NCBI GenBank assembly: GCA_944349655.1
Contig: CALVNL010000004.1
Coordinates: 8,819-72,818, forward strand
Direction of reading: 5' to 3'
From: an uncultured Clostridia bacterium
GTDB taxonomy: Bacteria > Bacillota > Clostridia > Christensenellales > DTU072
Length of the DNA stretch: 64,000 nt
Of this stretch, positions 24,919 through 55,604 are shown in pieces (the stretch's first letter is position 1; each line of letters starts with the position of its first letter). The translations under genes and the position numbers were made by a program. The notes under the pieces are model-generated. The model saw only the letters and a list, made by a program, of their open reading frames with translations. It made no database searches and had not been told where the DNA came from.

Positions 24919-27600
24919 TCAAAGAGTTTGCGGTGATTTTTTCCGGATCTTGTTGATCAGTCGGATTACCGCTTTTACCGCTTCGGACAAAACTATCGTG
25001 CAGGCGGCTATCCCGAACAGCTTGAGCCATAACGTAAACGGCAGGGGAACGGTTCCGAAGAAGGAGCCGGCAAATTGTATTATCAGCACCTGCAAAACGA
25101 AGGTAGTTCCTACCACTACAAGCATAAGTTTGTTTTGCAAAAGATGTCGGAATATGCTTTCGGAGTGGAGTTCCCGACAGTTAAAGGAATTAAACAGCTG
25201 GAACAACACGAACATCGTAAACAGTACCGTCAATTGTTGAGCTTCGGGTACGTTCAGGAAGTTATAAACGTATTGACAAAGGAACACCGCCGACATAAGT
25301 CCGCCCGTTACGAAAATTCTTGCAAACATCGGCTTTGAGATTATGCTTTCGTTACGTTTCGTCGGGGGGCGGGACATCAGGTCCTTGTAGTTGGGTTCCA
25401 GCCCCAGGGTCAGGGCGGGCGGTCCGTCCATTATTATGTTTATCCACAATAGTTGCAGGGCGGTAAAGGGTGCTTGAAGCCCGAGCAGAATGGACGTGAA
25501 AACCACAATGACCGAAGAAAGGTTTACCGTAAGCTGGAAAGTAATGAAGCGCTTGAAATTTTCGTAGATGTTCCTGCCCCATTCCACCGCTTTGACGATG
25601 GTGGCGAAAGAGTCGTCCAAAAGTACCACGTCGGCGGCTTCTTTCGATACTTCGGTGCCGGATATCCCCATAGCTATGCCTACGTCGGCGTTTTTCAAAG
25701 CAGGGGCGTCGTTTATGCCGTCTCCCGTCACGGCTACGACGTTTCCTTGATTTTTCAGTATCTGAACCACACGCATTTTGACTGTCGGGGTGCTTCGGGC
25801 GATAACGCATATTGAGGCAAGACGGTCTCCGAGTTCCTCGTCGGTCAGATTTTCCAGGTCCTTGGCTTCCACGGCAGTCATGCCTTCTTCCAACAACGAA
25901 AGTTCGGTTGCTATTGCCTGGGCGGTAAATATGTTGTCGCCGGTAAGTATCTTCAGACTTACCCCTGCACTCCGACAGGACTTGACTGCGTCATAGACCT
26001 CCTTTCGTAAAGGATCGCTTATCGCAACAAACCCGTCGAAAGTCATTCCGCTTTCCAGTAAACGGTGGTTTTCTTCGTTTTCGTAAACGAGGTCGGCTAC
26101 GTCGTCTTTGTGAGCAAACGCAATCACCCGCATAGCTTTTTCTTCGCAGGACTTTATTTCGCTTTCTATGCGGACTTTTTCTTCTTCGTTTAAAGAGCAG
26201 GAATACAAAACGTACTCGGGACTGCCTTTCGTCAAGGCTTTAATCTCTCCGCCGACATCTATAAGGGTAGTCATATGCTTAAGGTCTGAGGTAAAGGGGA
26301 ACGCCTTGATAACTTTGACTTTTTTCCTTTCGGCACGGTAGTCGTCGCCCGTCTTTCGTATTTTGCTTCCTTCGTAAAAATTAAGAAGAGCGCATTCGGT
26401 TGGATTGCCTAAGAATTTTCCGTTTTCACCTAAATCTGCGGTGGAATTAAGACATATATTGTATTTCAGGTTTTCGTCGTCGAGTTCGCTGACGTCTTCG
26501 TGAAAAGTTCCGTCGAAAAAGGTACGTACCGTCATTTTGTTTTCGGTCAAAGTTCCCGTTTTGTCCGAACATATTATATTGATACAGCCCACGGTTTCCG
26601 AAGCTATCATTTTTTTAACGAGAGCGTTGTGTCGGGCGAGTTTTATGATGTTTATGGAGAGGGAAACGGCGACTATGGTCGGCAGACCTTCGGGGACTGC
26701 GGCGACTATCAGTACGATACTGGTAACGAACGCTTCCATGACGTCTTCCGCGTTGAGTCCGTCGTGTAAAGCAAAACTTATCAGTTCGGAAATAAATACT
26801 ATCGCCGCTGCGGTAACTCCGAGGATGGTGATGATTTTTCCCAGGCGGGCGAGTTTTTGTTGCAGGGGAGTGGTGGTTTTGACGTTGTTGCGGAGTTCGC
26901 TTGCGATTTTTCCGAATTCCGTTTTATCCCCGACTGCGGTTATAACCGCTTTTCCGCTACCTGCGGTAACGTAAGTGCCGCCGTAAACCATATTCGCTCT
27001 TTCTGCGAGAGGAGTTTTTTCGTCGCAAGAAACAAACAAGGCGTCTTTGCGGGCAGGCAGACTTTCGCCCGTCAACATCGATTCGTCGCTTGACAGATCC
27101 ACCGAGGAAACAAGTCGTCCGTCTGCGGGAACTTTGTCACCCACGGCAAGACAGATAATGTCGCCGACTACTATTTCCTGTTGGGGGAGGAGTAAAGTTT
27201 TTCCGTTTCGGATAGCTTTGACGACGATATTTTCGCTGATGTCGTTCAACGCTTCGAAAGCTTTTGCACTCCTGCCTTCCATAACCACGCTGATAATGAC
27301 CGAAAGTGAAATAGCGCAGAAGATACCCACGCATTCCAGAAAGTCGGCTTCCCCGCCGCTGATTGCCCGATAAATATTGACTGCGAGCGCGATAAAGCCC
27401 GCCGCAATCAACATAATAATCATAGGTTCGGTGGCGGCTTCCCATATTCTTTTCAGCAAGGATTCCTTTTTCGGTTTGGTTAATGCATTGGAGCCGTACT
27501 TTTTACGGTTTTCCTCCACGCAACCGTCCGAAAGTCCGTTTTCCGCATCCGAAGATAATTCGCTGAGAACGGTCTCCCTGTCGTCGAAAAAATCTCTCAT
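24919..27600 (-). CDS. P2-type cation-transporting ATPase (Ca2+/Mn2+ pump type)
   Basis: DKTGTLT, PEGLP in TM4 and TGDGINDAPALK. The ATG at 27600 has GGAGG 5 nt upstream. The ORF-track start at 27693 lies inside the leader hairpins. Confidence 0.9.
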   Translation of the reverse strand: MRDFFDDRETVLSELSSDAENGLSDGCVEENRKKYGSNALTKPKKESLLKRIWEAATEPMIIMLIAAGFIALAVNIYRAISGGEADFLECVGIFCAISLSVIISVVMEGRSAKAFEALNDISENIVVKAIRNGKTLLLPQQEIVVGDIICLAVGDKVPADGRLVSSVDLSSDESMLTGESLPARKDALFVSCDEKTPLAERANMVYGGTYVTAGSGKAVITAVGDKTEFGKIASELRNNVKTTTPLQQKLARLGKIITILGVTAAAIVFISELISFALHDGLNAEDVMEAFVTSIVLIVAAVPEGLPTIVAVSLSINIIKLARHNALVKKMIASETVGCINIICSDKTGTLTENKMTVRTFFDGTFHEDVSELDDENLKYNICLNSTADLGENGKFLGNPTECALLNFYEGSKIRKTGDDYRAERKKVKVIKAFPFTSDLKHMTTLIDVGGEIKALTKGSPEYVLYSCSLNEEEKVRIESEIKSCEEKAMRVIAFAHKDDVADLVYENEENHRLLESGMTFDGFVAISDPLRKEVYDAVKSCRSAGVSLKILTGDNIFTAQAIATELSLLEEGMTAVEAKDLENLTDEELGDRLASICVIARSTPTVKMRVVQILKNQGNVVAVTGDGINDAPALKNADVGIAMGISGTEVSKEAADVVLLDDSFATIVKAVEWGRNIYENFKRFITFQLTVNLSSVIVVFTSILLGLQAPFTALQLLWINIIMDGPPALTLGLEPNYKDLMSRPPTKRNESIISKPMFARIFVTGGLMSAVFLCQYVYNFLNVPEAQQLTVLFTMFVLFQLFNSFNCRELHSESIFRHLLQNKLMLVVVGTTFVLQVLIIQFAGSFFGTVPLPFTLWLKLFGIAACTIVLSEAVKAVIRLINKIRKKSPQTL

Positions 27601-27623
27601 AGATACCTCCGATATTCCGAGGC

Positions 27624-27780
27624 GAAAAAAATGTATGGCGTATCCGACTGCCATACAATAAAAAAAGACTCCATGCATGGCAAAAATATCCATACATGAG
27701 TCTCGCCATTTAATACAAGCCAGGTAGAGTAACCAGTATGTTGACTTGTCGCACCGCAGTGCCGACTACTCCCTCATTGA
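27624..27780 (-). promoter_or_regulatory. yybP-ykoY (Mn2+) riboswitch-like leader with two tandem intrinsic terminators
   Basis: The minus-strand RNA reads CAAUGAGGGAGUAG-UCG-[GCAC UGCG GUGC]-GAC-CAAG-UCAACAUAC...CUUG...GGCGAGAC-UCAUG. The GGGAGUAG and GCGAGAC blocks and the helix order resemble the family. GAGACUCAUGUAUGG is also the 5' arm of a 13-bp terminator hairpin followed by U7. A second hairpin, GUAUGGC...GCCAUAC plus U7, follows. Confidence 0.5.
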
Positions 27781-27876: not shown

Positions 27877-27922
27877 GCAAACAAAAAACCCCGTTGAATG
27901 GGGTTTTCGCTTGCTTTTTTTT
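27877..27922. terminator. Bidirectional terminator at the end of the R-M operon; copy A of a hairpin repeat family
   Basis: GCAAACAAAAAACCCC-gttgaat-GGGGTTTTCGCTTGC followed by T8. The left arm and loop are near-identical to the copies at 36750 and 36947. Confidence 0.7.
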
Positions 27923-27967
27923 AGATAAACACTTGTTTAATCGCTAGATACAAAATAGTTATTAATT

Positions 27968-29656
27968 TTAAAGATTCATAGAAGTAATAAACTCCGTAAT
28001 GCTTTTATACACTTCGTCATCCAAATTCGTATATTCTACTAAAACTTTATTTACCCATTCAGGACCATGTCCACCTACTTCTTTTATAAAACATTCTAAC
28101 TCGCCTACAGGTACGATATATACGCCATGCTCTTTTAGCAATCCATCAATTCTTCGGAAAGAACTGGTTGCGTCTGCTGGTGGTAAAGCTGATATTCCAG
28201 ATGATTTCAATGTTTTCCACTTGGAAATTGTAGAAACCGCTTCCTTAATGGTTTCACTTTCTTTATTAGATAAAATCTTGCTTGTTGATGAATCCAAAAC
28301 TTGATTTATTGTAATTTTCGCTGTAGTTCTATCTATCTTTTCTTTAGGACTATGCAAATTGCTTACAATTTTATTATAATCCGTTTTAATACTATCATAA
28401 TCTACTGCATATGCTTCAACAATACCTTTAAAGAGCTCTTCATCATTTAAAACATCAATGTCTACGATAGTTGTAACTGGCACATTCAATGAGCGCAGCG
28501 CTTGAATAATTTTAGACATACGGTGTTTGCCGCCGCAATGAATAAACAAAGTTTCAGAATACTTCTGTTGCTTTTGCTTGATATGGCTTTCAATTATTGA
28601 ATACATCTTACAATCAGAATCACTTTCACAAAGAACAACCGATTTGTGGAAAAGACTTGCCATAATATTAGAGTATTTTAATAACGGATCACTCCAAACC
28701 CTATTGAAATCTGCATTATTTAAGATCGAAAAGTGATTAATATTTCCGTCTCGAGTAATTCTGACTATTTTAATTCTTTCGGGGCAAGAATCCAACAATC
28801 CTTTTATAATTTCTTCACTATGGGTTGAAATAAATGCTTGTTGTTTATCTGACAATGTTTGCCCTATAATTTGCCCCATAATTCTCGCTTGCGGAGGATG
28901 AAGAAACGATTCTGGCTCATCAATCAGATAAATTCTGTAATAATCCAGCATTAAATACAGCAAAATGCCGGTGAAGCTTTTTATTCCATCTCCTTGATTT
29001 TGAACCTGATCATAGGTCTCAAGAATTTTTGCAAATGCTTCTTGACGAGTTATTTCGTCATCGAAATTACCATCCAAAACAAAATTTTTGCCTATGCATA
29101 GAGGAATTGCTGCACCATAAAATGTATTAGGTGTTAAATCTTGCCCGAAAGCCTTTTTAAAATTGTCAGACAACCATTTTCTATATTTACCGTCAAAAGC
29201 TGCATAATGTATTGGATGACTTTTATTCTCGTCTCTTCTGATGTTCTGTGGTGCCGAGCAAATAGTTAATCGTGCTGAAGTATCTAAATTAGCCACAAAT
29301 AAATCACGAAAATTATCAAAATATGGGGACGATTGAAATCTTTGGTCTGTAAAATTAAAAACATTCATATGATGTCCAAAAACATTATATGATATATGAT
29401 CTCCATTATGAATTCCTTTTGAAACGCAAGATAATGCAGACGATATCGGCGTTGAAGATTTTGTGATTGTTATATTTGATATCACCACACTTGGCACTTT
29501 TTTCGCAGAAAGTGCGTATACATCTTTTAAAGCTTGGCTTTTACCTGCATTATTTGGACCGACAAAAACCACTATATCATTTTCCGATATATCCAAGTTT
29601 TGACCATTATTAAACTGTATTTGAGAAATAAATCCCCCTGCTTTTTCTTCAGACAT
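27968..29656 (-). CDS. ABC-type ATPase fused to a TOPRIM/DUF4435-like nuclease domain (OLD-family class 1 / fused PARIS AriA-AriB-like)
   Basis: Walker A GPNNAGKS (33-40), signature-like GDGIKS (222-227), Walker B YLIDEPE (243-249), H-loop STHS. Then VVLCESDSD (Glu) and IVDIDVLND (DxD) as in TOPRIM, and a C-terminal GVYIVPVGELECFI block. Confidence 0.7.
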   Translation of the reverse strand: MSEEKAGGFISQIQFNNGQNLDISENDIVVFVGPNNAGKSQALKDVYALSAKKVPSVVISNITITKSSTPISSALSCVSKGIHNGDHISYNVFGHHMNVFNFTDQRFQSSPYFDNFRDLFVANLDTSARLTICSAPQNIRRDENKSHPIHYAAFDGKYRKWLSDNFKKAFGQDLTPNTFYGAAIPLCIGKNFVLDGNFDDEITRQEAFAKILETYDQVQNQGDGIKSFTGILLYLMLDYYRIYLIDEPESFLHPPQARIMGQIIGQTLSDKQQAFISTHSEEIIKGLLDSCPERIKIVRITRDGNINHFSILNNADFNRVWSDPLLKYSNIMASLFHKSVVLCESDSDCKMYSIIESHIKQKQQKYSETLFIHCGGKHRMSKIIQALRSLNVPVTTIVDIDVLNDEELFKGIVEAYAVDYDSIKTDYNKIVSNLHSPKEKIDRTTAKITINQVLDSSTSKILSNKESETIKEAVSTISKWKTLKSSGISALPPADATSSFRRIDGLLKEHGVYIVPVGELECFIKEVGGHGPEWVNKVLVEYTNLDDEVYKSITEFITSMNL

Positions 29657-29674
29657 TTTTATTCTCCTAAAGGA

Positions 29675-31096
29675 TTAGTATTTCAATTCATCGCACAGGG
29701 CGAGAAGTTCTTCGACTCGTTTGACGATGCGTTTTTGCTCGGCAAGCGGTGGCAAAGGAAGCAATAAGTGTTTTAGTTTATCTGCCTTGATACCTTTCGC
29801 AGTAGCACCCGTACAATTATCAAGGAGTTGCTGTTGGAATTGTGGTGATAATATAAAATACATAAACAAAGCAGGAACTACAGTTTCTTTTTCATATTCT
29901 TTCAAAGTAATAACTCTTTGTCCACAAGAACATTCGTCTAAATCACATAATGCTACGTTCCCCATAGGAGCTTCAGTGGTGAATAACAAATCACCATGTT
30001 CTGTTATTCCACGACTTTTCCTCTCGGAATATTCTTTTTTGGATATGTACTCTTTTCTTGAATAATCCATATAAGCTCGCTTAATATTTGATGCTGTAAT
30101 CAAAAATATACCTTGGGAAATTTTATTTGGTGTTTTTCCCCGATAATCAACAAAGTCAAATAGTTGATTAAGTTCCACCATTATCCAAGAATTGGGTATT
30201 TCAAAGTTCATAGCAGACAGATTAAGTTCGCTTTTACACGGTTTGATTTTGCTATGATGCTTTTTCAATTTTTGAACAATATCAGCACTTAACCCTTCTT
30301 CATTGTGCTGATTTACAAGTTTACCTTGTACTGCTTGTTGCAAAATCGACTTGCGGAGCTTATCCGGGAATTCGGCATTTAATTTGTTTAACTGTTCTTC
30401 TGCCTTGCCGTATTCCTCAATCAAAGGCATCAATTCTTCGATTTTTGCAACAATTCGCTTTTGTTCCGCAAGAGGAGGAATAGGGATAGGCGTATTTTTT
30501 AGAATTGTGAGGTTTATATTCATCTGCGCCATTCCTTTTCCTTTTGACACAAGAATGTCCTTCAAACCAATCAAAACATAATACATGTAATCGCGACTAT
30601 ATTCACCGAAAAATGTTACACCTGCGACAGCTTGATTTGTGGCTGCATCAATATTCAATATCCCAACCGTTCCTATTGTAGCAAAAATAGTATATAAAAT
30701 AGTTCCTTTGGGAAAAATCTTTGCTGATGATGAATTCAATCCTTGTTCAGAAATTTTTTCTTCTGTTGTGGAAATATATTTATTTCTGATATCTCCGATT
30801 TTTACCCACGGGATATTACCATTCCAAAATGATGAATTAGTGCGCGCTGGCGTACCACCGGAAGTAATTGAAGAAATATCATTTAGACGAACCCATTCCC
30901 AACTTTCAGGAATATCAAAAGGAATTTCATCTTCTGATATTGCAGGTAACGATTTTTCTTTTATCCCGAGTTTCTGTTTTTCGGCACGAATATGTTTCAG
31001 CAATTCCAATGCCGGTTCGTCATCTTTGCATTGCGGCACAAGTTTCCCCTGTACCGCCAACTGCAAAATGGAGTTTTTCAATTCCTGCGCGGTCAT
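29675..31096 (-). CDS. hsdS: Type I restriction-modification specificity subunit
   Basis: Two variable TRDs. They are separated by the conserved helices PPLAEQKRIVAKIEELMPLIEEY (central) and PPLAEQKRIVKRVEELLALCDEL (C-terminal). 4-nt overlap with hsdM. Confidence 0.9.
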   Translation of the reverse strand: MTAQELKNSILQLAVQGKLVPQCKDDEPALELLKHIRAEKQKLGIKEKSLPAISEDEIPFDIPESWEWVRLNDISSITSGGTPARTNSSFWNGNIPWVKIGDIRNKYISTTEEKISEQGLNSSSAKIFPKGTILYTIFATIGTVGILNIDAATNQAVAGVTFFGEYSRDYMYYVLIGLKDILVSKGKGMAQMNINLTILKNTPIPIPPLAEQKRIVAKIEELMPLIEEYGKAEEQLNKLNAEFPDKLRKSILQQAVQGKLVNQHNEEGLSADIVQKLKKHHSKIKPCKSELNLSAMNFEIPNSWIMVELNQLFDFVDYRGKTPNKISQGIFLITASNIKRAYMDYSRKEYISKKEYSERKSRGITEHGDLLFTTEAPMGNVALCDLDECSCGQRVITLKEYEKETVVPALFMYFILSPQFQQQLLDNCTGATAKGIKADKLKHLLLPLPPLAEQKRIVKRVEELLALCDELKY

Positions 31097-32541
31097 TCGT
31101 TGCCCTCCAATTTTGCGGTGATACTTGCCAAGATGCGGTCTATTGCGGTATTCAGTTCGGTGCGCTCCGCTTCATAGTGGGCAATCAGATCTTTCGGCTC
31201 GAGAATTTCTTCTTCCGTATGCGGGAAAGGACAGCATTTATCGAAATCATAGTTCAGTGCTTCCAATTCTTCGGGCGTATAGAAGCGTGCTTTGTCAAAA
31301 CCGTCAACAATAATGGCTTGTTTGTTGGCCCACCACTCACGCACAGGGTCAAAGTGCTTGTCCAGCATGGGTTTTGTTTTGGAAAAACTCTTTACGCCTT
31401 CGGGATAGTCAAGGCGGTAAAACCATACACCGCGGCTGACAACGCCTTTTTTGAAGAACAAAAGATTGGTGTTGACGCTGGCATAAGGTTTAAACACCTG
31501 CGGCAAACGTATGATTGTATGTAAGCCGTATTCTTTTAGAAGCTTCTCTTTAATCGTGTTCTTTACGCCGTCGCCAAACATAAAACCGTCGGGCAAGACG
31601 ACGCCTGCTCTGCCGCCGTCTTTAAGCAGATTCATAATGAGCGCCATAAACAGATCCGCCGTTTCGCTGGTTTGCAATTCGCTCGGAAAGTTTTTCTTGA
31701 CTGCGGCGTCTTCCGCTCCGCCGAAAGGGGGATTAGCGACTATCACATCCACACGATCTTTTGCCGAATAATCGGAAAGAGGTCTGTTCAAAGAATTGAT
31801 GTGTTTTATTCTCGGTATCTCGATGTCATGCAAAATCAAGTTTGTCATGGCAAGAAGATAGGGAAGGGGCTTTTTCTCCCAACCGCTAATAGAAATCTGA
31901 AGCTTTTCGAGTTCTTCAGTCGTCGTAACGCTGCCGATATGCGCAATAGTGCTGGTCAAAAAACCACCCGTGCCACAAGCGGGGTCGAGGACGGTTTCTC
32001 CGAGTTTAGGATCGACCTTTTCGACGATGAAATTCGTAACGGGTCGAGGCGTATAAAATTCACCCGCTCGCCCTGCGCTCTGTAAATCTTTCAGCATACC
32101 TTCATAGAGGTCATTGAAAGTATGTTTCTGTGTTGCGTCGATAAAATCCACCTTCTCATTGATGCGGTTGACAAGCTGACGGAGATAAACGCCCGATTTC
32201 ATATAGTTGTTGATGTCTTCAAACACGTTACGGACAACGAATTTGCGCATATCGCCGTCGGACGTATCTATCTTTTTGAGTTTATCAAACAGTTCGTCTA
32301 TAAATTTGATGAGAGCGTCGCCGGTAATTCCTTCTTTGTCCGCCGCCCAATCGCGCCAGCGGTAACCCTGAGGAATGACGCCTTTATAGTCCGGACGGAA
32401 CTCCCATTCCATTTCTTTGGCGTCAAACGCTTTCAAAAACAAAAGCCAGGTGATCTGTTCGATATACTGTGCATCGCCGTTCAAGCCTGCGTCTTTACGC
32501 ATTATATCTTCCAGCGATTTTATCATAGTGGACATTGCCAT
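31093..32541 (-). CDS. hsdM: Type I restriction-modification N6-adenine DNA methyltransferase subunit
   Basis: Motif I VLDPACGTGGFL and motif IV VIVANPPFGG. The N-terminal HsdM_N-like region has ITWLLFLKAFD. Confidence 0.92.
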   Translation of the reverse strand: MAMSTMIKSLEDIMRKDAGLNGDAQYIEQITWLLFLKAFDAKEMEWEFRPDYKGVIPQGYRWRDWAADKEGITGDALIKFIDELFDKLKKIDTSDGDMRKFVVRNVFEDINNYMKSGVYLRQLVNRINEKVDFIDATQKHTFNDLYEGMLKDLQSAGRAGEFYTPRPVTNFIVEKVDPKLGETVLDPACGTGGFLTSTIAHIGSVTTTEELEKLQISISGWEKKPLPYLLAMTNLILHDIEIPRIKHINSLNRPLSDYSAKDRVDVIVANPPFGGAEDAAVKKNFPSELQTSETADLFMALIMNLLKDGGRAGVVLPDGFMFGDGVKNTIKEKLLKEYGLHTIIRLPQVFKPYASVNTNLLFFKKGVVSRGVWFYRLDYPEGVKSFSKTKPMLDKHFDPVREWWANKQAIIVDGFDKARFYTPEELEALNYDFDKCCPFPHTEEEILEPKDLIAHYEAERTELNTAIDRILASITAKLEGNE

Positions 32542-32553
32542 AGTATGTACTCC

Positions 32554-34230
32554 TTATTTTCTCTTTTCCGATGAATAAACTTCTTTATGGTCACCGCAAG
32601 AACCGACTATTATTTTTTTATCCTTATCGGAAAATCCAAAGTGGATGCTTTGTTTTTTCTGGGCATAGGTTATATGCGCTTCTATATTGATGCTTTCGCC
32701 GTTATAATCAGTCACAAATTGGCGCATAAGTTTTGCATCAGCTCTTGTCATGGACCCTTCACCACGCGTCGCTTTAATACCTGTTTGCATTTTAAATTCT
32801 TTATAGATGTCTCCACCTTTTGTAAAATACAAATCCCACATTACGGTTGATAAAGCAAAAAAAGCTTTCCAAAGTTCAGACAAGTCTATAGTGCAAGTTT
32901 TTAATGTTTTTCTTGCATCATCCGTAAATTGAATTTTATCTCCGAAAGTTGCTTCAAAATAATTTACTATGTCATTACACGTTTTCGGATAATTTTTAAT
33001 GTCCAATCTACTTAAAGTGGCTTTCCTTAATGCAGCATTTTCTTGTGCAAAAGACCGATAACTTTCATTTTGTTGTGTAAGACTATAATTTTCATCTTTT
33101 AGGTTAATAAGTTCTACTTTTAAACGATCTCTTTCAGCTTCTGCTATAAGTTTTTTTTCTTCTTCCTCCATCGCCAAGCTTATAGATTCGTTTTCGACTT
33201 CTTTCAGTTTTTTTTGATGTGTAGATTGAAGCTCCTTTAATCTCTTTTGCCTAATATTAGCTTCTACCTTTGCCCGACAATCATCTATGCGGAAAAATTT
33301 ATCGTAAGCAGTCATATCTTGAGCAAGGGCTCGACGCAGTATTTGACAAACGGCATTTTCCCCAATTGTTTCAATTCGATCAGGGTGAAAATATCTATGA
33401 CGGGTATAGTCTAATTCGTCAGTTGGCTTTACACCCGGATAATAAATGCGAATCATTCCATTGTAGCAAGCTAATTCTTGGGGGGTGAAGAAATTCATTT
33501 CATCTGTTACTGCTTTGCTTGTGGCATAAAATACAAGCGCATTTCCACCTACAGCTTTTGCTATATTTTCCGGGTTTACATACAAACAATCCGTTTCGCT
33601 CAAAGAACTATTTTTCGGGCTAATATAAATATAAGGGATATTTCTTTCTTCACTTTGGAGTTTTTCCCAAAAATTCATCCAACCGCCGTCTCCTATTTTT
33701 TGAGGCGATATAGAGATTCTATCGACACCGCAATAACATTCGATTAATTTATCATCTACTACTTTCTTTATTAATCCTGGAATATTTGGTAAAGGCATAG
33801 GTTCAAACTCCCCGATGAAGCCCGGTCTATCGCTATACGATATAACGCAAGAGAAATACGCTTTATTCTCATCGATGGGCTCATACCCGACTTCCGTAAC
33901 CCATCTTCTGGGGGCGAATCCGTTTTCAGAAAACGGCGTCTCGATTATTTGGCAAGCCCAGTATATATTATTCTTTGCAGGTTCTGGCACATAACATACG
34001 GCAGAGGATATTGTAACTGTTCTGTTGTCAAAAGATGAGATTGTTCCGCCCTTTTTTAAGCTACTCCAATCTTTTGCATCATCTGAAAGGAGTTTTTCTT
34101 TTTTATTCCATTTATTTGTTTGCCAATTTTTGATATGACAAACTAAACGCCAAAGTAAATCTTGTTCGGGGGCTTGCAGAGAAAGCATGAATCTAACCTT
34201 ATAAAATATAGTTGAATTTAAATCAATCAT
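32554..34230 (-). CDS. Uncharacterised 558-aa protein embedded between hsdR and hsdM (N-domain / coiled coil / C-domain)
   Basis: Long uninterrupted ORF with AAGGAG upstream. Its TAA stop lies inside the hsdM RBS (TAAGGAG). No P-loop or nuclease motif recognised. Residues ~318-405 are a Glu/Lys/Leu heptad-rich coiled coil. Confidence 0.7.
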   Translation of the reverse strand: MIDLNSTIFYKVRFMLSLQAPEQDLLWRLVCHIKNWQTNKWNKKEKLLSDDAKDWSSLKKGGTISSFDNRTVTISSAVCYVPEPAKNNIYWACQIIETPFSENGFAPRRWVTEVGYEPIDENKAYFSCVISYSDRPGFIGEFEPMPLPNIPGLIKKVVDDKLIECYCGVDRISISPQKIGDGGWMNFWEKLQSEERNIPYIYISPKNSSLSETDCLYVNPENIAKAVGGNALVFYATSKAVTDEMNFFTPQELACYNGMIRIYYPGVKPTDELDYTRHRYFHPDRIETIGENAVCQILRRALAQDMTAYDKFFRIDDCRAKVEANIRQKRLKELQSTHQKKLKEVENESISLAMEEEEKKLIAEAERDRLKVELINLKDENYSLTQQNESYRSFAQENAALRKATLSRLDIKNYPKTCNDIVNYFEATFGDKIQFTDDARKTLKTCTIDLSELWKAFFALSTVMWDLYFTKGGDIYKEFKMQTGIKATRGEGSMTRADAKLMRQFVTDYNGESINIEAHITYAQKKQSIHFGFSDKDKKIIVGSCGDHKEVYSSEKRK

Positions 34231-34253
34231 CTTCTTCAGTACTCCTTAAATTA

Positions 34254-36572
34254 TTATGCCGCGTAGATAGCCCTTTCTAATTCTCTGATAGCTTCACGGA
34301 ATTTTGCTATCCCGCCGAAAATGGTATTCACAATATAAACTTGTGTTCCGTATTGCTTAATCGGTTCAACCTTCAAAACGTCCACGTTTTCAAGGTCAGT
34401 CAGACCGCTATCGGCATACTTCGTCAAAAGTGCATCCAAAATCTCTGCGGCTTGCTTTCCGTATTTGGTAAAGTAATTGTGTTTACGGACATTTTCGGCT
34501 CGCTCTTTTCTTGTCAGCGGCGGTTGGTCGAATACGATATGCAAAATCAAATCAAACGGGTCTAAATCCTTACTGACTTCGTCACACAAGTCATCAAAGA
34601 ACACACCGCGTTTTTCAAGCTCGTCAACGATTGCTTGTTTGCGCTCTGCCGCATTCCAAGCCGCAAGAAAATCGTTCATCTCCGCATACTGGCTCAATAC
34701 GTTTCGCTTTGTATAATCGATAAGACGTTCGGTAATCAGATGACCGTTTTTATCAAGATATTGCACATGCTTTTGAGAGACAGAAACCTGAGTGTCGCCG
34801 AGAACGTATTTTTGTCTTCTTTCGCGTTCCGGAGGCGTAATTTCAGGAGGCCTTTCAGGTCCTTCTCCGGGTTTATTCGGATGAAAATCGTCTTGCTGCT
34901 CAATCGGACCGTCAAAATCAGGATCATGGAAAAGGCGTGTAACATCGCGGAAGTCGAAAATCGTAAAGTACATTTTTCCGAGGTCTTCCCGGACACGTGT
35001 GCCGCGACCGATAATCTGTTTGAATTCGGTCATGGATCTGATATTGGAATCCAGCACAATAAACTTAACCGTCTGAACGTCAACGCCTGTGGAAAGCAAT
35101 TTGGAAGTCGTAACAAGCACGGGATATTCTTTTTCAACATTTCTGAAATTATCAAGTTGCTTGACGCCTGCTTCGTCATTTGCCGTAATACGCATAACAT
35201 AACGGGAATCTAACGCACACATATCCGCATTTTCATTTACCAATGCTTGACGCATACGGTCTGCGTGCTCCTGATCGACACAGAAGAATATTGTCTTATC
35301 CATTCTGCAATCGTGCTTTTTAAGATAGTCGGAGACGGTCTTTGCAACGAGTTTTGTTCGTTTTTCGAGAACGAGATTTTTATCAAAATCAGTCGTGTTG
35401 TAAACTCGGTTGTCGATGACTTCACCGTTGTCGTCAAGCTGACCTTCATAAGGAACAAAACCCTCGATGTCTTTATCAAAAAACACTCGAATGACACGAT
35501 ACGGGGCTAAGAATCCGTCGTCTATACCTTGTTTCAAAGAATACGTATAGATTGGCTCGCCGAAATAATCAATATTGGAAACAGTATTTGTTTCTTTCGG
35601 CGTTGCGGTAAGCCCTACCTGCGTGGCAGAGGAAAAATACTCCAATACTTCACGCCATTGACTGTCAGCTTTTGCGCTACCCCGGTGACACTCGTCAACG
35701 ACAACTAAATCGAAGAACCCCGGACTGAATTGCTTAAACAAACTGTTGGCATCTTCGTCTTCTCCTGTCAACCCCTGATAAAGGGCAAGATATATCTCAT
35801 GAGCCGTATCAATGTTTTGTTTTGTTACCCACGTCATCTTATCCTTAAACGGAGCAAAATCATTGGTAAAAGTCTGCGCAATCAACGCCGTTCTGTCGGC
35901 AAGGAAAAGAATGCGCTTTTTAAGACCCGCTTTCCAAAGTCGCCAAATAATCTGAAAAGCAGTATAAGTTTTACCAGTGCCTGTTGCCATAACAAGCAAG
36001 ACTCTGTTTTGCCCCTTTGCAATAGCTTCAACGGTTTTGTTGATTGCGTTCATCTGATAATAGCGCGGCTGCTTATCGGGATTATCAGAGTAGTACGGCT
36101 CATCAATAACAGTATCTTGCACCTTGCTGATATTGTTTTGTTCGTGATACATTTTCCATAAAGTTTCCGGTGACGGAAATTCATTCAAAGAAAGATTTAT
36201 CTCGGCAGGTCCTTCGGTAATGAACTTGTTATGAAAAACAAAACCGTCACCGTTTGAAGAAAACACGAACGGAACATTCATCATATCGGCATATTGCAAC
36301 GCTTGTTGCATACCGTCTGCCATAGTATGGTTATTGTCTTTGGCTTCAATAACAGCTATCGGTTTATTCGGTTTGTAAAAAAGAACATAATCCGCTTTCA
36401 AAGGGGCTTCTCGTTTGCAGACTTTCCCACGGGCGATAATTCTGCCATTCGTAATTTTATATTCCTCACGTATTTGTGAAAATAAACTCCAACCGGCAGA
36501 AACGATTGCAGGCGTAATGAATTTTGTCCTTATATCCATTTCAGATAAAGATTTTTTATCGTAAGAATTCAT
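34254..36572 (-). CDS. hsdR: Type I restriction endonuclease/translocase subunit
   Basis: N-terminal PD-(D/E)xK (DYVLF...VIEAKD). SF2 motif I MATGTGKT and motif II VVDECHR. The ATG at 36572 has GGGAGAG upstream; the ORF-track start at 36587 is a TTG inside the RBS. Confidence 0.9.
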   Translation of the reverse strand: MNSYDKKSLSEMDIRTKFITPAIVSAGWSLFSQIREEYKITNGRIIARGKVCKREAPLKADYVLFYKPNKPIAVIEAKDNNHTMADGMQQALQYADMMNVPFVFSSNGDGFVFHNKFITEGPAEINLSLNEFPSPETLWKMYHEQNNISKVQDTVIDEPYYSDNPDKQPRYYQMNAINKTVEAIAKGQNRVLLVMATGTGKTYTAFQIIWRLWKAGLKKRILFLADRTALIAQTFTNDFAPFKDKMTWVTKQNIDTAHEIYLALYQGLTGEDEDANSLFKQFSPGFFDLVVVDECHRGSAKADSQWREVLEYFSSATQVGLTATPKETNTVSNIDYFGEPIYTYSLKQGIDDGFLAPYRVIRVFFDKDIEGFVPYEGQLDDNGEVIDNRVYNTTDFDKNLVLEKRTKLVAKTVSDYLKKHDCRMDKTIFFCVDQEHADRMRQALVNENADMCALDSRYVMRITANDEAGVKQLDNFRNVEKEYPVLVTTSKLLSTGVDVQTVKFIVLDSNIRSMTEFKQIIGRGTRVREDLGKMYFTIFDFRDVTRLFHDPDFDGPIEQQDDFHPNKPGEGPERPPEITPPERERRQKYVLGDTQVSVSQKHVQYLDKNGHLITERLIDYTKRNVLSQYAEMNDFLAAWNAAERKQAIVDELEKRGVFFDDLCDEVSKDLDPFDLILHIVFDQPPLTRKERAENVRKHNYFTKYGKQAAEILDALLTKYADSGLTDLENVDVLKVEPIKQYGTQVYIVNTIFGGIAKFREAIRELERAIYAA

Positions 36573-36749
36573 ATTCTCTCCCTTCAAGCGTGAAATCCTA
36601 ATATATTTAAATTAAGAATTTAATCTTTTACCAAAATATATTTTGATATTATAAATTATATATTTTATATAAATAGTTTTCAAGCATATATTAATAAAAG
36701 ATAAAAATAGATATGCCCGATGCTTGTCAATTTAAATATATCATTATAT

Positions 36750-36807
36750 AAACAAAAACCCCGTTGAAGGGGTCGTTTTGTTTGTATTGGCGTTCCCGGC
36801 GGGAGTC
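36750..36807 (-). repeat. Direct repeat copy B: terminator hairpin plus the last ~20 nt of tRNA-Arg (att-like remnant)
   Basis: 58 nt differing from 36947-37005 only by one A in the A-run and one G/A substitution. It diverges exactly after ...CGGCGGGAGTC. Confidence 0.8.
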
Positions 36808-36946
36808 CCTCGCACTCTCGCTATCGCTCGCCGACGGGCCTGGGCGGTATGACAGCATACTATGCTGTCAACTACGACGGCAATGCTCTTTGAATTTTCT
36901 TGTGCCGTCTATCCGCCCGTTCGACTCCCTGAATAATCTCGTATGC
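36808..36946. other. 139-bp spacer with nested inverted repeats between the two att-like copies
   Basis: GGGAGTC (36801-07) pairs with GACTCCC (36923-29). GGGCGG (36842-47) pairs with CCGCCC (36913-18). GACAGCATA-c-TATGCTGTC lies at 36851-69. GACGGCA (36876-82) pairs with TGCCGTC (36903-09). Confidence 0.4.
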
Positions 36947-37005
36947 AAACAAAAAACCCCATTGAAGGGGTCGTTTTGTTTGTATTGGCGTTCCCGGCGG
37001 GAGTC
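36947..37005 (-). repeat. Direct repeat copy C: tRNA-Arg 3' end plus its terminator hairpin
   Basis: Partner of 36750-36807. The hairpin CAAACAAAAAACCCC-attgaa-GGGGTCGTTTTGTTTG serves as the tRNA terminator on the - strand. Confidence 0.8.
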
Positions 37006-37120: not shown

Positions 37121-37183
37121 GAGAATACGCTTTTTTACACTTAGCTCTTCTCCCGCATCGTAGGAAAATTTAGCTTTTCGGAA

Positions 37184-37212
37184 TTGACACGAAGTACGTT
37201 TCGTTGTATAAT
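37184..37212 (+). promoter_or_regulatory. Consensus sigma-A promoter for the ferredoxin gene
   Basis: TTGACA (37184-89), 17-nt spacer, TATAAT (37207-12). Confidence 0.7.
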
Positions 37213-37245
37213 GAAGAAAACCAAAATATAAGGAGATTGATTATT

Positions 37246-37416
37246 ATGGCATATGTAATTAACGATACTTGCATCAGCTGCGGTTCCTGTGAAGGCGAAT
37301 GCCCCGTTAGCGCTATCAGCGCAGGCGACGGAAAATACGTCATCAACGCCGACGAATGCATAAGCTGCGGTTCCTGCGCCAGCGTTTGCCCCCAGGAAGC
37401 TATCAGCGAAGAATAA
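37246..37416 (+). CDS. fdx: 2x[4Fe-4S] clostridial-type ferredoxin (56 aa)
   Basis: AAGGAGA RBS. Two CxxCxxCxxxCP motifs (CISCGSCEGECP and CISCGSCASVCP). Confidence 0.92.
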   Translation: MAYVINDTCISCGSCEGECPVSAISAGDGKYVINADECISCGSCASVCPQEAISEE

Positions 37417-37440
37417 TTTTTCTTTTTCAAAAATCGGAAA

Positions 37441-37467
37441 AAGACCGTTTTACGACGGTCTTTTTTC
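37441..37467 (+). terminator. Intrinsic terminator after the ferredoxin gene
   Basis: AAGACCGT-tttacg-ACGGTCTT followed by a T-run. Confidence 0.75.
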
Positions 37468-37558
37468 ATTTGCTCCCGAATGAAGAAATATTTTTTTTAT
37501 CGAGAAAAATTTATTGCGGTAAATTCTTGACAACCTTTTTAATATAATGTATTATTAA

Positions 37559-51652: not shown

Positions 51653-51669
51653 GTCGGTAAATGCCGCGA

Positions 51670-54600
51670 TTAGTCTTTCTTGGCCATAGCCTTGTATCTT
51701 TCTCTGCGTTCTGCGGCTTCTTTTTCGTTGATATCGAAGAGTTTTTCCGCCTGTTCGGGGAAGAGTTTCTTCAAAGAAGCGTATCTGGTTTCGCCTGCGA
51801 GGAAAGCCTTGTAATCGCTGACGGGATCCTTGCTGTCGAGGATGAAGGGGTTCTCTCCTTTGTCGGCAAGGGTGGGATTGTAACGGTACATCGACCAGTA
51901 TCCGCTGTCGACCGCCTTCTTCATTTCGGCGATGGAGTTGGACATATTGATACCGTGGTTGATACAGGGAGCGTAAGCGATGATGATGGAAGGTCCGTGG
52001 TAAGCTTCGGCTTCCTTGAACGCTTTGACGGCCTGTTCGGGGTTGGAACCGAGGTTGATCTGAGCTACGTAAACGTAACCGTAACTCATAGCCATCATAC
52101 CGAGGTCTTTCTTCTTGGTCTTCTTTCCGCTTGCGGCAAATTTGGCGATAGAGCCGGTAGGAGTGGATTTGCTGGCCTGTCCGCCGGTGTTGGAGTAAAC
52201 TTCGGTGTCGAGGACGAGGATGTTGACGTCTTCGCCCATAGCAAGAACGTGGTCCACGCCGCCGTAACCGATGTCGTAAGCCCATCCGTCACCGCCGAAA
52301 ATCCATACCGATTTCTTGACCAGGCAGTCTTTTTCTTCGAGAATAGCTTTGCAAAGGTCGTCGGCTTCGCATCCGCATCCGTTGCATTTTTCCACTACGG
52401 CAATCAGTTTTGCCGCGCTTTCCTTGCTGCCTTCGGCGTCTTCCATATTGTCTATCCAGCTCTGGCAAGCTTCGGCGCCTTCGGCAAAGTCGGCGAATTT
52501 TTCCTTCAGAGCGAGGACGTTTTCTTTGAGTTTTGCTCTTCTCTGAACGTAAGCGAGGTTCATTCCGTAACCGAATTCGGCGTTGTCTTCGAACAGGGAG
52601 TTAGCCCAAGCGGGTCCGTGTCCTGCGTCGTTTACCGTGTAAGGACAGGTGGGTGCGCTTCCGCCGTAAATGGAGGAGCAGCCGGTCGCATTGGCGATAA
52701 TCATTCTGTCGCCGAAAAGTTGAGTTACGAGTTTGACGTAAGGAGTTTCTCCGCAGCCTGCGCAAGCTCCGCTGAATTCGAACAGAGGTTTGGCAAACAT
52801 GGTTTCCTTAGCGCTGTTGAAGCTGTAAACTTTGTCGTTTTCGGGGAGAGCTTCGAAGTAATCCCAGTTGGCGGCTTCCTTTTCGATAGCTTCGGCAACG
52901 GGAACCATGGTGAGAGCTTTCTCCTTGGCGGGGCAGACGTTGGCGCAACTTCCGCATCCGGTGCAGTCGTACGGGCTGACCTGTACTCTGAAACGGTATT
53001 CCTTGAGTTTGGCGGGAGCTTTGATTTCCGCAGTTACGAAGGTTGCGGGAGCGTCGGCAATCTGAGCGGGTTTCTTCAATACCGGACGGATAGCGGCGTG
53101 CGGGCAGACCAAAGAGCAACGGTTGCACTGTATGCACTTGGTGATGTCCCAGGAAGGAACTTTAACCGCGGTTCCGCGTTTTTCGTACTTGGTGGTTCCT
53201 ACGGGTACCGAGCCGTCTGCGTTGAACGCGCTTACGGGCAGGGTGTCGCCTTTCTGGCAAAGGATGGGATTGACTACGTTCTTGAAGTAGTCGTCGCCCT
53301 TAACGGTGACCATGGGAGCGCCTTCGGTAGTGGTAGCCCAGCTTTCGGGGTATTTCACTTCGATGAGGTTTGCGATGGCTCCGTCCACTGCGGCGTAGTT
53401 CATATTGACGACGGCGTCGCCTTTCTTGCCGTAGGTCTTCTTGATAGCCTGTTTCATATATTCTTCGGCCTGAGCGTAGGGGATAACTTCGGTCAGTTTG
53501 AAGAAAGCCGCCTGCATAACGGTATTGACGCCCTTGGTGGCTCCGATGCTGGCGATAACTTTGTTACCGTCGAGGGTGTAGAACTTGATGTGCTTTTTGG
53601 CGATGGCGTTCTTGACGGGAGCGGGGAGTTCCTTATCCATTTCTTCCGCGGTCCAGATGCTGTTAAGGAGGAAGGTTCCGCCTTCTTTAAGATCGCTGAG
53701 CATATCGTAACGGTAAATATAGCTCGGGCAGTGGCAAGCCACGAAGTCGGCGTGGTCGATAAGATAACTGCTCTTTATGGGTTTGTCGCCGAAACGCAGG
53801 TGGCTTATGGTGATACCGCCGGACTTCTTGGAGTCGTAATGGAAGTATCCCTGAGCGTATTTGTCGGTGTGGTCACCGATGATTTTAATGGAGTTCTTGT
53901 TGGCGCCGACGGTACCGTCGCTGCCGAGACCGTAGAACTTGCAGCAGATGCTTCCTTCGGGAGCGGCGTTGACGAATTCGCCTGCGGGGAGGGAGGTGTT
54001 GCTGACGTCGTCCACGATACCCACGGTGAAGTGATCCTTATTGGCTCCGCCCATATTGGCGTAAACGGAAGCTATCATAGTGGGGTTGAATTCCTTGCTG
54101 CCCATACCGTAACGTCCGCCGAGGATAACGTAATCCTTTCCGCGGAGAGCGGCGCATACGTCGAGGTAGAGAGGTTCGCCGAGAGAGCCGGGTTCCTTGG
54201 TACGGTCGAGGACGGTGATGTACTTAACCGTGGAAGGTATGGCGGCGGCGAGTTTGGCTACGTCGAAAGGACGATAAAGTCTGACCTTGATAAGACCGGT
54301 CTTTTCTCCTCTTGCGTTGAGGTAATCGACGGTTTCTTCGCAGGCTTCGCATCCCGAACCCATCATTATGATAATCTTGTCGGCGTCGGGCGCTCCGTAG
54401 TAATCGAAGAGGTTGTATTTTCTGCCGGTGATGCTTTCCACCTGTTTCATGCAGTCTTCCACGATTGCGGGAACTTTTTCATAGTAAACGTTGCAGGCTT
54501 CTCTGTTCTGGAAATAAATATCTCCGTTCTGAGCGGTACCTTTCTGAATGGGATGTTCGGGGTTGAGGGCTCTGTTCTTGAAATCTCTTACGTCCTTCAT

Positions 54601-55185
54601 ATCCACGAGTTTAGCCATATCTTCGTAATCGATGGCGTCTATCTTGCTGACTTCGTGGCTGGTACGGAAACCGTCGAAGAAGTGCAGGAAAGGAACTTTG
54701 GCTTTCAGAGTGGCGAGGTGAGAAACCAGCGCAAGGTCCATAACTTCCTGAACGGAGTTGGAGCAGACCATCGCGAAACCGGTCTGACGGCAAGCCATAA
54801 CGTCGGCGTGGTCGCCGAAAATGTTGAGGGCGTGAGCTGCGAGGGCTCTTGCCGAAACGTGGAATACGCAGGGCATCAGTTCGCCGGCGATTTTATACAT
54901 ATTCGGAATCATAAGGAGCAAGCCCTGAGAAGCCGTAAAGGTGGTGGTCAAAGCGCCCGCGCACAGAGAACCGTGAACGGCGCCGGCGGCACCGGCTTCG
55001 GACTGCATTTCCGCAATACGCAATTCCTGTCCGAACATATTTTTCCTGCCTTGAGCGGCCCACTCGTCGGAGTTTTCCGCCATGGGGGAGGAAGGGGTAA
55101 TGGGATATATTGCCGCTACTTCGCTGAACGCATAAGCAACGTGTGCGGCGGCTGTATTCCCGTCAATGGTCATTTTCTTACTCAT
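51670..55185 (-). CDS. nifJ: Pyruvate:ferredoxin (flavodoxin) oxidoreductase, single-polypeptide type
   Basis: 1171 aa. N-terminus MTIDGNTAAAHVAYAFSEVAAIYPITPSS. Ferredoxin-like CIQCNRCSLVCP and CTGCGSCANVCP. TPP domain GGDGWAYDIG. Confidence 0.95.
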   Translation of the reverse strand: MSKKMTIDGNTAAAHVAYAFSEVAAIYPITPSSPMAENSDEWAAQGRKNMFGQELRIAEMQSEAGAAGAVHGSLCAGALTTTFTASQGLLLMIPNMYKIAGELMPCVFHVSARALAAHALNIFGDHADVMACRQTGFAMVCSNSVQEVMDLALVSHLATLKAKVPFLHFFDGFRTSHEVSKIDAIDYEDMAKLVDMKDVRDFKNRALNPEHPIQKGTAQNGDIYFQNREACNVYYEKVPAIVEDCMKQVESITGRKYNLFDYYGAPDADKIIIMMGSGCEACEETVDYLNARGEKTGLIKVRLYRPFDVAKLAAAIPSTVKYITVLDRTKEPGSLGEPLYLDVCAALRGKDYVILGGRYGMGSKEFNPTMIASVYANMGGANKDHFTVGIVDDVSNTSLPAGEFVNAAPEGSICCKFYGLGSDGTVGANKNSIKIIGDHTDKYAQGYFHYDSKKSGGITISHLRFGDKPIKSSYLIDHADFVACHCPSYIYRYDMLSDLKEGGTFLLNSIWTAEEMDKELPAPVKNAIAKKHIKFYTLDGNKVIASIGATKGVNTVMQAAFFKLTEVIPYAQAEEYMKQAIKKTYGKKGDAVVNMNYAAVDGAIANLIEVKYPESWATTTEGAPMVTVKGDDYFKNVVNPILCQKGDTLPVSAFNADGSVPVGTTKYEKRGTAVKVPSWDITKCIQCNRCSLVCPHAAIRPVLKKPAQIADAPATFVTAEIKAPAKLKEYRFRVQVSPYDCTGCGSCANVCPAKEKALTMVPVAEAIEKEAANWDYFEALPENDKVYSFNSAKETMFAKPLFEFSGACAGCGETPYVKLVTQLFGDRMIIANATGCSSIYGGSAPTCPYTVNDAGHGPAWANSLFEDNAEFGYGMNLAYVQRRAKLKENVLALKEKFADFAEGAEACQSWIDNMEDAEGSKESAAKLIAVVEKCNGCGCEADDLCKAILEEKDCLVKKSVWIFGGDGWAYDIGYGGVDHVLAMGEDVNILVLDTEVYSNTGGQASKSTPTGSIAKFAASGKKTKKKDLGMMAMSYGYVYVAQINLGSNPEQAVKAFKEAEAYHGPSIIIAYAPCINHGINMSNSIAEMKKAVDSGYWSMYRYNPTLADKGENPFILDSKDPVSDYKAFLAGETRYASLKKLFPEQAEKLFDINEKEAAERRERYKAMAKKD

Positions 55186-55604
55186 CTGAACCTCCGTAAA
55201 TATAGTTGTTATCGTAAATTATTTTAGAATATAACCTTTACTATTATAAATAAATACCATACTAAAGTCAAGTTCTGAAACCGACTTGGGAAACGGAAAA
55301 TCCTTCGGCGGTCCGAAAGGGGCAAACATTGCCGGACACTAATATAAATATCCTTTCATAAAAGTTTGACGGCAGGGTAAAGACAATAAGACAAATGAGA
55401 CGGATTAAAAATTGCTTTTTACATAAAAATACGTTAATAGGTTTCCTAAATAAGGTATACGATAACCCAAAACAAGATTTTTATCGATATATATTTTTAT
55501 CGTCGTATCGTGCGGCGAAAAGGACAAAAGTTGACAAATGTAAAAAATTTGACGCTTTAGGGAATTTGTGTTAAGATATAAAAAACGTATCCGAGAGGTA
55601 AGGA

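Follow-up and report, generated by a model that had tools for sequence, protein, structure and literature searches.

What are two large genes of other families doing inside a type I restriction-modification (R-M) operon: do they encode parts of the enzyme, sentinels that watch over it, or defense proteins in their own right? This question is raised by a locus on contig CALVNL010000004.1 of an uncultured Clostridia bacterium, in which five genes, in the order hsdR-X-hsdM-hsdS-ORF5, span positions 27968-36572 and are all encoded on the minus strand. Coordinates are positions in the analyzed stretch of 64,000 nucleotides (nt), hereinafter the window. The answer that we consider quite probable is that this locus is an island lacking an integrase that combines an intact type IB R-M operon with two plugged-in, autonomous, single-gene defense cassettes, probably all served by one AT-rich promoter and a displaced tRNA terminator.

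The R-M backbone and its two accessory genes

The five open reading frames (ORFs), with lengths in amino acids (aa) from the ORF list, and the leader upstream of them are as follows.

27968-29656, minus strand: ORF5, OLD-family gene, 562 aa
29675-31096, minus strand: hsdS, 473 aa
31093-32541, minus strand: hsdM, 482 aa
32554-34230, minus strand: ORF X, 558 aa
34254-36572, minus strand: hsdR, 772 aa from the ATG (extended to a TTG at 36587 in the ORF list)
36588-36753, minus strand: leader and promoter region, guanine-plus-cytosine (GC) content 0.17

The first-pass annotation of the locus described five co-oriented minus-strand ORFs spaced by 23 nt, 12 nt, a 4-nt overlap and 18 nt, considered hsdR, hsdM and hsdS to be intact, with full canonical motifs, and regarded the two additional large ORFs as foreign to canonical type I systems; all these points were borne out, and the two additional proteins could be assigned to the HEC-07 family (X) and the OLD family (ORF5). 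The ATG of hsdR at 36572 is preceded by GGGAG, and the resulting 772-aa HsdR has the length that was called in its homologs.

HsdR matches the NCBIfam model NF046051, the equivalog of the EcoAI/FtnUII-family R subunit, end to end with 1119.9 bits (cut-off 550), and encompasses the Pfam domains HSDR_N, ResIII, Helicase_C and EcoEI_R_C (E = 2.3e-30), with the nuclease residues D61 and E76-x-K78 and the superfamily 2 (SF2) helicase motifs ATGTGKT, DECH, TATP and QIIGRGTR. HsdM matches N6_Mtase (E = 2e-61) and HsdM_N in Pfam and contains DPACGTGGF (S-adenosylmethionine, AdoMet, motif I) and the catalytic NPPF motif. HsdS matches Methylase_S of Pfam in two stretches, which correspond to two target-recognition domains, and contains the repeated conserved regions LQxAVQGKLV and PLAEQKRIV; among the related loci, the target-recognition domains vary and the conserved regions persist. 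Judging from these matches and motifs, the three genes are predicted to encode an intact R-M system of the EcoAI family (type IB).

No family in Pfam or NCBIfam matches X, even at E ≤ 10, and a sequence-profile comparison with the PDB yielded coiled-coil noise only. The PADLOC model of HEC-07, PDLC04161, aligns with residues 89-548 of X over positions 90-547 of 553 (E = 1.4e-28, 98.1 bits), two more HEC-07 models in PADLOC match more weakly, and residues 366-551 match the PADLOC profiles of Menshen NsnC over the C-terminal BECR nuclease region (E = 3.2e-12). The family of X is large, with 1,140 representatives (50% clustering) at E ≤ 1e-3, most of them 550-570 aa long. Two histidines, H519 and H548, are invariant across 53 aligned sequences, in at least 90% of which E517, R489 and R496 are conserved as well. 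The full-length model of X (AlphaFold, AF2; predicted local distance difference test, pLDDT, 84.7) consists of a beta-rich domain at the N-terminus, an alpha/beta domain, a long helical coiled coil at approximately 315-410 and a C-terminal alpha+beta domain. A Foldseek search of the PDB with this model gave just weak START/Bet v1-like matches to the N-region (E ≥ 4e-3), and because the full-length search was uninformative, the C-terminal 145 residues were modeled separately (pLDDT 86.1, predicted template modeling score, pTM, 0.81). With this domain, Foldseek retrieved one unrelated toxin followed by RelE2, RelE, YoeB, HP0892 and HigB, all at weak E-values (0.1-0.3), with target-normalized template modeling (TM) scores of 0.43-0.57 for RelE2, RelE, YoeB and HP0892. 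We file X as a distant member of the HEC-07 family with a predicted RelE/BECR-like RNase at the C-terminus. Some distant relatives of X (34% identity; L003 975-3714, L004 1536-4275) share a 32-nt overlap with a 358-aa gene that lies upstream and matches PF27209 (Rv3785_N), an arrangement suggesting that the HEC-07-like family has a variant consisting of two genes.

ORF5 scores above the Pfam cut-offs for AAA_21, AAA_15 and OLD-like_TOPRIM (PF20469; 34.3 bits against a cut-off of 23.2), and its best PADLOC model is Old (E = 4.4e-23), with only residues 242-441 aligned. The ABC motifs GPNNAGKS (Walker A), QGDGIKS (signature), YLIDEPE (Walker B) and STHS (H-loop) are invariant in 24 homologs, as are residues K39, D246/E247 and H279 and the TOPRIM acidic set E344, D346, D348, D399 and D401. 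No UvrD/PcrA, retron or GajB partner of this clade recurs among 81 related loci, and ORF5 itself is flanked in the window by hsdS and the terminator. These features point to a divergent OLD-family nuclease with a single-gene, class-1-like architecture. Given that P2 Old cuts tRNA anticodon stems (PMC12445682), the substrate of ORF5 could be tRNA as well as DNA. The PADLOC matches also raised the idea that ORF5 and X form a Menshen-like NsnB/NsnC pair, which we rejected because each of the two genes occurs irrespective of the other and NsnA is missing.

An island at tRNA-Arg(CCT) and its modular relatives

A scan of reference genomes with the P-type ATPase gene that flanks the locus (24919-27693) identified contig CASDZI010000065.1 of an uncultured Christensenella sp. 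(hereinafter L011), in which this ATPase is 97% identical at the protein level and which is itself 96% identical to the window. In BLAST comparisons, positions 104-635 of L011 match 37472-36945 of the window (ferredoxin gene, tRNA-Arg and terminator), and positions 608-4108 match 27904-24402. As L011 runs straight from the 36945 side into the 27904 side, the intervening 27905-36944 is absent there and represents an insertion, that is, an island located in the terminator just 3' of tRNA-Arg(CCT) of a gut bacterium resembling Christensenella. A comparison of the tRNA-Arg locus in related genomes was proposed in the first-pass annotation; in L011, it is the entire 9,040-bp block that is missing. 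The parts of the island and its insertion site are as follows.

27905-36944, minus strand: genomic island, 9,040 bp, absent from the empty-site contig L011
36986-37062, minus strand: tRNA-Arg(CCT) (ARAGORN; Rfam tRNA, 67.3 bits)
36945-36972, minus strand: repeat copy A, terminator hairpin right after the tRNA, left island junction
36808-36944, minus strand: spacer between copies A and B, 137 nt, GC 0.54
36754-36807, minus strand: repeat copy B, last 20 nt of the tRNA, trailer and terminator
27877-27908, minus strand: repeat copy C, displaced native tRNA-Arg terminator, now the terminator of the operon

Approximately 28-nt direct repeats within the tRNA terminator (copies A and C) flank the island. 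Copy C, which lies upstream of the P-type ATPase gene, is identical over 27877-27904 to the sole terminator hairpin of the empty site in the alignment. The loop of copy A (-18.9 kcal/mol, z = -4.74) differs slightly from the empty-site version, which marks this copy as island-derived. Copy B is 98% identical to 36952-37005 (54 nt), is 198 nt away from copy A, and looks like a remnant of an attachment (att) site; being a good hairpin (-14.5 kcal/mol, z = -3.69), it would insulate the operon promoter from tRNA read-through. The A/B duplication and the 137-nt spacer are missing in L011, no homology to this spacer was detected in any fetched locus, and the duplication resembles a scar left at this att site by an earlier or a miniature element. 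No integrase, transposase or recombinase was found in the island by inspection of the ORF list or by comparison with Pfam, PADLOC and NCBIfam, the five ORFs being its only genes. An Rfam scan of 27-38 kb detected the tRNA only, and a megablast search with the island against E. coli genomes gave no match.

Context look-ups and BLAST searches identified the same R-M backbone, at 72-91% nt identity, in several forms.

hsdR-hsdM-hsdS-OLD, without X (L092-L096, L097-L100, L101, L103): additional genes are DUF6088-AbiEii or Fic upstream and DUF3800 downstream
hsdR-X-hsdM-hsdS, without OLD (L001, L005-L007): followed by unrelated 311-aa, 85-aa and 150-aa genes
X-hsdM-hsdS-OLD (L091): OLD is 92% identical, and the block adjoins a different tRNA-Arg(CCT), toward which its OLD end points

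These variants delineate X to the nucleotide. The backbones without X are homologous up to the hsdR stop codon (34254) and again from 32557 onward, so that the X cassette corresponds to 32558-34253. In L092, the junction reads GCA TAA GGAGTACATACC ATG, where the hsdR TAA stands directly before the hsdM ribosome-binding site (likewise in L097); in the window, the hsdR TAA is followed by the cassette, which ends in AAA TAA GGAGTACATACT ATG. A stand-alone X in L008, with 70% identity at the protein level, has 73% nt identity, and the DNA homology comprises exactly the ORF plus 12 nt. Because homology breaks exactly at gene boundaries, modular assembly is supported; judging from these alignments, X is a cassette exact to the nucleotide, which lacks a promoter and brings its own ribosome-binding site. 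ORF5 is read in the same way, as a single-gene cassette that has a ribosome-binding site but no promoter of its own. Both cassette junctions (34231-34256 and 32542-32560; compare L092 4105-4128) carry TAAGGAGTAC, that is, a stop codon followed by a ribosome-binding site, which could be a trace of insertion microhomology or a case of convergence on the ribosome-binding site.

Some of the related backbones are associated with further defense- or toxin-like genes, namely, DUF6088-AbiEii (L092 170-1782) or Fic (L097 756-1664), 12-15 nt upstream of hsdR. Downstream, there are DUF3800 and uncharacterized 311-aa and 338-aa genes (L092 8691-9509, L005 15198-16010), and, in L092, a PLDc_2/MZB/helicase cluster follows on the opposite strand. 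In L091 (5806-5973, compared with 27877-27967 of the window), the block next to the other tRNA-Arg(CCT) is inverted, with its OLD end toward the tRNA 3' end; in both loci, the homology of the island stops at the tRNA terminator, such that both orientations are found at the same tRNA species, with no recombinase.

The base composition of the operon is mosaic. The GC content and the GC content at third codon positions (GC3) are 0.336 and 0.247 for the OLD gene, 0.370 and 0.308 for hsdS, 0.466 and 0.530 for hsdM, 0.361 and 0.292 for X, and 0.423 and 0.422 for hsdR, compared to GC of 0.43-0.48 and GC3 of 0.48-0.57 in the flanking genes; the target-recognition domains of hsdS are AT-rich (GC by 150-nt block), and the GC content of the island is 0.390 vs 0.440 for the remaining window. 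From the flank-like GC of hsdM and much of hsdR and the AT-richness of X, the hsdS target-recognition domains and the ATPase gene, the first-pass annotation derived a stepwise assembly. The mosaic and the modular assembly stand, but a native origin of hsdM and hsdR does not, given that the whole block is absent from L011. For the same reason, namely, an empty site without all five genes, we rejected the possibility that hsdM and hsdR are native and the foreign genes were inserted around them; the resemblance in GC between hsdM and the flanks is coincidental. The same mosaic recurs in other hosts, with GC of approximately 0.46 for hsdM, 0.42 for hsdR, 0.36-0.38 for X and 0.345 for OLD. Thus, the mosaic travels with the backbone, and the assembly of the modules predates the arrival of the island in this genome.

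Outside the island, the 4Fe-4S ferredoxin-like gene beside the tRNA (37170-37469) contains an internal 55-nt direct repeat (37270-37411, 75% identity) that corresponds to two cluster-binding motifs; this 99-aa ORF has no Pfam match at E ≤ 0.001. Elsewhere in the window, ORFs at 51661-55227 (plus strand, 1188 aa) and 51670-55185 (minus strand, 1171 aa) lie opposite each other and overlap over nearly their entire lengths; one of the two is presumably a shadow ORF.

Linkage to R-M, transcription and rival explanations

The first-pass annotation envisaged a primary restriction layer with backup or abortive modules that fire when restriction is inhibited, a scheme that depends on the accessory genes being tied to R-M. 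For X, such a tie exists only within a clade of 78-86% identity, whose members reside in type IB operons. At 70%, 47%, 46% and 34% identity, X occurs apart from R-M, including stand-alone genes in L008, L002 and L009. The distant relatives are located among housekeeping genes (L009, L010), in a defense island (L002), next to the PF27209 protein (L003, L004) and on IMG/VR viral contigs, and none of these has hsd neighbors. In the defense island of L002, the X homolog (6310-7741, 47%) lies beside a Multi_ubiq/ThiF (DUF6791) pair and a second type I R-M system of another family. Among viral contigs, we identified six remote relatives of X and one of OLD, and the plasmid database contained only remote matches (25-31% identity), whose annotations read 'hypothetical protein' or 'AAA ATPase'.

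The neighbors of the OLD gene were classified in 81 loci with homologs of 59-73% identity, of which 53 were evaluable, 16 of these with the OLD gene directly beside type I genes. Clustering at 90% identity and addition of L091, L092 and L097 resulted in 25 evaluable clusters: 7 adjoin type I R-M and 18 are located away from it. The linked genes show several arrangements, namely, after hsdS in type IB operons (L091-L103), after a DUF4145-type HsdR (L112), and, for homologs of 63-65% identity, between hsdS and a T1R_D3-like HsdR of approximately 995 aa, with gaps of 0-19 nt (L125-L134, L139, L148, L151; for example, L125 3805-9834). The latter group adds a second type I family, and a second place in the operon, to the settings of this OLD clade. 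Other recurrent neighbors are a helix-turn-helix (HTH) protein of the XRE type, Fic and a GmrSD-HNH protein. The R-M-linked members do not group together in a neighbor-joining tree but are scattered across it, implying that the linkage was gained or lost repeatedly. In this OLD clade, an association with type I R-M is frequent but not obligate. Both accessory genes are conserved without R-M, X at the four levels of identity given above and OLD in 18 of the 25 clusters. Conservation independent of the R-M genes is an outcome that the first-pass annotation itself had named as refuting, and it weakens the backup idea. We also considered X or ORF5 as a subunit of the type I enzyme and rejected this possibility because both are found without hsd genes.

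The mechanism that we propose consists of separate layers. The R-M system would act first, methylating a bipartite motif in the host DNA and cutting unmodified incoming DNA. Before infection, the coiled coil and the N-terminal domains probably keep the predicted RelE-like RNase domain of X inactive; once released, this domain would shut down translation. ORF5 is probably an ATP-gated nuclease that would cut tRNA or DNA when triggered. Each module most likely works alone, X and ORF5 being independently triggered, probably abortive layers, and co-transcription would yield three mechanistically different layers of defense from one promoter.

The most serious rival is a guard model, in which X and/or ORF5 monitor the type I complex and fire when an anti-restriction protein (Ocr, ArdA or Stp-like) blocks R-M, as PrrC does with EcoprrI. 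The repeated location of the OLD clade beside hsd genes (L091-L103, the L125 group and L112) and the scatter of the linked members over the tree, indicative of repeated capture, fit this model, and there is published precedent for ABC-ATPase systems that respond to anti-restriction proteins, in that Ocr and Stp activate PARIS, Gabija and PrrC. Nevertheless, we find this model unlikely: the genes for X and OLD are both conserved without an R-M neighbor, ORF5 carries a TOPRIM domain rather than the HEPN anticodon-nuclease domain of PrrC, and HEC-07 is one of seven candidates that lowered phage plaquing in E. coli K-12 without R-M systems (Payne et al. 2024, bioRxiv 10.1101/2024.01.29.577857). 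The recurrent, non-obligate linkage keeps alive a looser hypothesis of synergy between R-M and OLD. A bolder version, to which we give slightly less credence still than to the guard model at large, is that the OLD clade is a dedicated partner or guard of type I complexes that was captured repeatedly, by at least two type I families and in two positions, senses inhibition of HsdM, HsdS or HsdR or the binding of a DNA mimic, and answers with abortive infection via its nuclease, making it a TOPRIM counterpart of PrrC. Were this the case, then, together with the exact boundaries of the promoterless X cassette, type I operons would emerge as plug-in expression platforms for defense cassettes.

A second rival concerns transcription: X and/or ORF5 could be expressed from internal promoters in the upstream coding sequences, and the locus would then be a gene array rather than one operon. 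The AT-rich leader upstream of hsdR, recognized in the first-pass annotation as the promoter region, contains a sigma-70-like TTGAAA-17-TATAAT (36683-36655) and is specific to this locus, homology to the other backbones beginning at 36587. At the other end, the hairpin at 27884-27908 resembles a terminator on either strand (-20.1 kcal/mol, z = -4.25 against shuffles), in accord with the bidirectional terminator noted on first reading. Between these, weak sigma-70-like matches occur upstream of X (34279-34250, 9/12) and of ORF5 (29924-29896, 9/12), and both genes possess their own promoters where they stand alone in other genomes. However, promoter-like matches across the whole region are at the chance level (28 found vs 27.0 expected in shuffles), the 12-23 nt gaps contain ribosome-binding sites only, and homology with the stand-alone X begins just 12 nt before the ATG, which implies that no native promoter came along. 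A terminator scan found no terminator-like sites in the intergenic gaps of the five-gene cluster. Two terminator-like hairpins within hsdM were considered as points at which the operon could be split and were dismissed because shuffled sequences fold just as well (z = -0.56 and +0.52). With no intergenic terminators, shuffle-like hsdM hairpins and promoter matches at chance, a single transcription unit is the simplest reading, and separate units appear improbable.

Least credible of all is that the RNase-like and nuclease-like genes are addiction or selfish cargo that stabilize the island by post-segregational killing, or hitch-hike on it, rather than anti-phage effectors: the resemblance of the X C-domain to RelE-family toxins and the mobile contexts of the island and its relatives (serine recombinases, TnpV, AbiEii, Fic) are outweighed by the lack of an antitoxin-sized gene beside X or ORF5 in the ORF list of the window, by the length of X, which is conserved at approximately 550-570 aa across the 1,140 representative clusters, as expected of a regulated multidomain protein, and by the experimentally demonstrated protection by one HEC-07 representative.

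Several observations count against an island with two autonomous cassettes, the reading that we prefer. The match of X to the HEC-07 model is distant (98 bits), the RelE-like fold of its C-domain comes with weak Foldseek E-values (0.1-0.3), and the full-length Foldseek comparison with the PDB did not confirm the AdoMetDC-like and thioredoxin-like N-domains of HEC-07 in X. ORF5 matches the solved OLD structures marginally (PDB 6P74, E = 0.003-0.006). The 7 of 25 OLD clusters beside type I R-M, from two families, in two positions and scattered over the tree, could mean functional coupling. Finally, with no recombinase in the island, its movement is unaccounted for.

Comparison with known systems

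The backbone shares with EcoAI and other type IB systems the gene order hsdR-hsdM-hsdS, the 4-nt overlap of hsdM and hsdS, and an HsdS with two target-recognition domains and repeats, and differs in having a 558-aa gene between hsdR and hsdM and a 562-aa gene after hsdS. Variable extra ORFs between the hsd genes of conserved type I loci, the 'rlo' genes of Campylobacter jejuni, were reportedly described by Miller et al. in 2005; these belong to other gene families and to a host of another phylum. The island resembles tRNA-targeted islands in its insertion on the 3' side of a tRNA gene, its direct repeats and the existence of an empty site; a cognate integrase is not among its genes.

HEC-07 has been described as a single-gene system embedded in Hma operons, with AdoMetDC-like and thioredoxin-like domains, a C-terminal RelE-family RNase and a conserved H543, and HP0892 is the structure to which it was matched (Payne et al. 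2024, bioRxiv 10.1101/2024.01.29.577857). X resembles it in being a single gene of approximately 555 aa with a near-full-length hidden Markov model match, embedded in a larger defense operon, in its invariant histidine near the C-terminus (H548 in X vs H543), and in having HP0892 among its top structural neighbors. It differs in its location in a type IB R-M operon, as opposed to Hma, and in the prominent coiled coil at approximately 315-410 in its model. Menshen NsnC is an effector of the BECR/RelE superfamily, whose C-terminal domain is a YafQ/RelE-like RNase (PMC12065111). The matches of X to the NsnC profiles fall in their C-terminal BECR region, but X is a single gene with unrelated N-terminal domains, without NsnA/NsnB partners or an inPIN N-domain.

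Like class 1 OLD proteins (phage P2 Old; Thermus scotoductus OLD, PDB 6P74), ORF5 combines an ABC ATPase and an OLD-type TOPRIM in one polypeptide, conserves the glutamate and DxD acidic residues, and has no helicase, retron or GajB partner; unlike these, it is highly divergent in sequence, and approximately 28% of the clusters in its clade are linked to type I R-M. PrrC-EcoprrI and RloC offer the parallel of an ABC-ATPase-regulated nuclease (predicted, in the case of ORF5) inside or beside a type I R-M operon. In ORF5, however, the effector is TOPRIM, not HEPN, its linkage to R-M is not obligate (7 of 25 clusters), whereas PrrC is cited as being found almost only inside type I R-M loci, and no PrrC or RloC model was among the PADLOC, Pfam and NCBIfam matches listed for it.

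If the reading as an island with autonomous cassettes holds, the type IB backbone with or without the HEC-07-like RNase gene, with or without the OLD-like nuclease, along with the empty site and the nucleotide-exact junctions, would constitute a natural combinatorial series. Such a series would be convenient for asking whether embedded defense genes are independent of the host R-M operon or synergistic with it, and how promoterless defense cassettes swap into operons. The layout as such has already been described: defense genes embedded in type I R-M, BREX, DISARM and Hma operons are the subject of Payne et al. 2024 (bioRxiv 10.1101/2024.01.29.577857), PrrC is the classical case, and PADLOC models already match both accessory proteins, so that the locus is not a new kind of system. 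Relative to these precedents, it would extend HEC-07 from Hma systems to the type I R-M operons of gut Clostridia, and it flags one clade of OLD proteins with an unusually frequent linkage to R-M.

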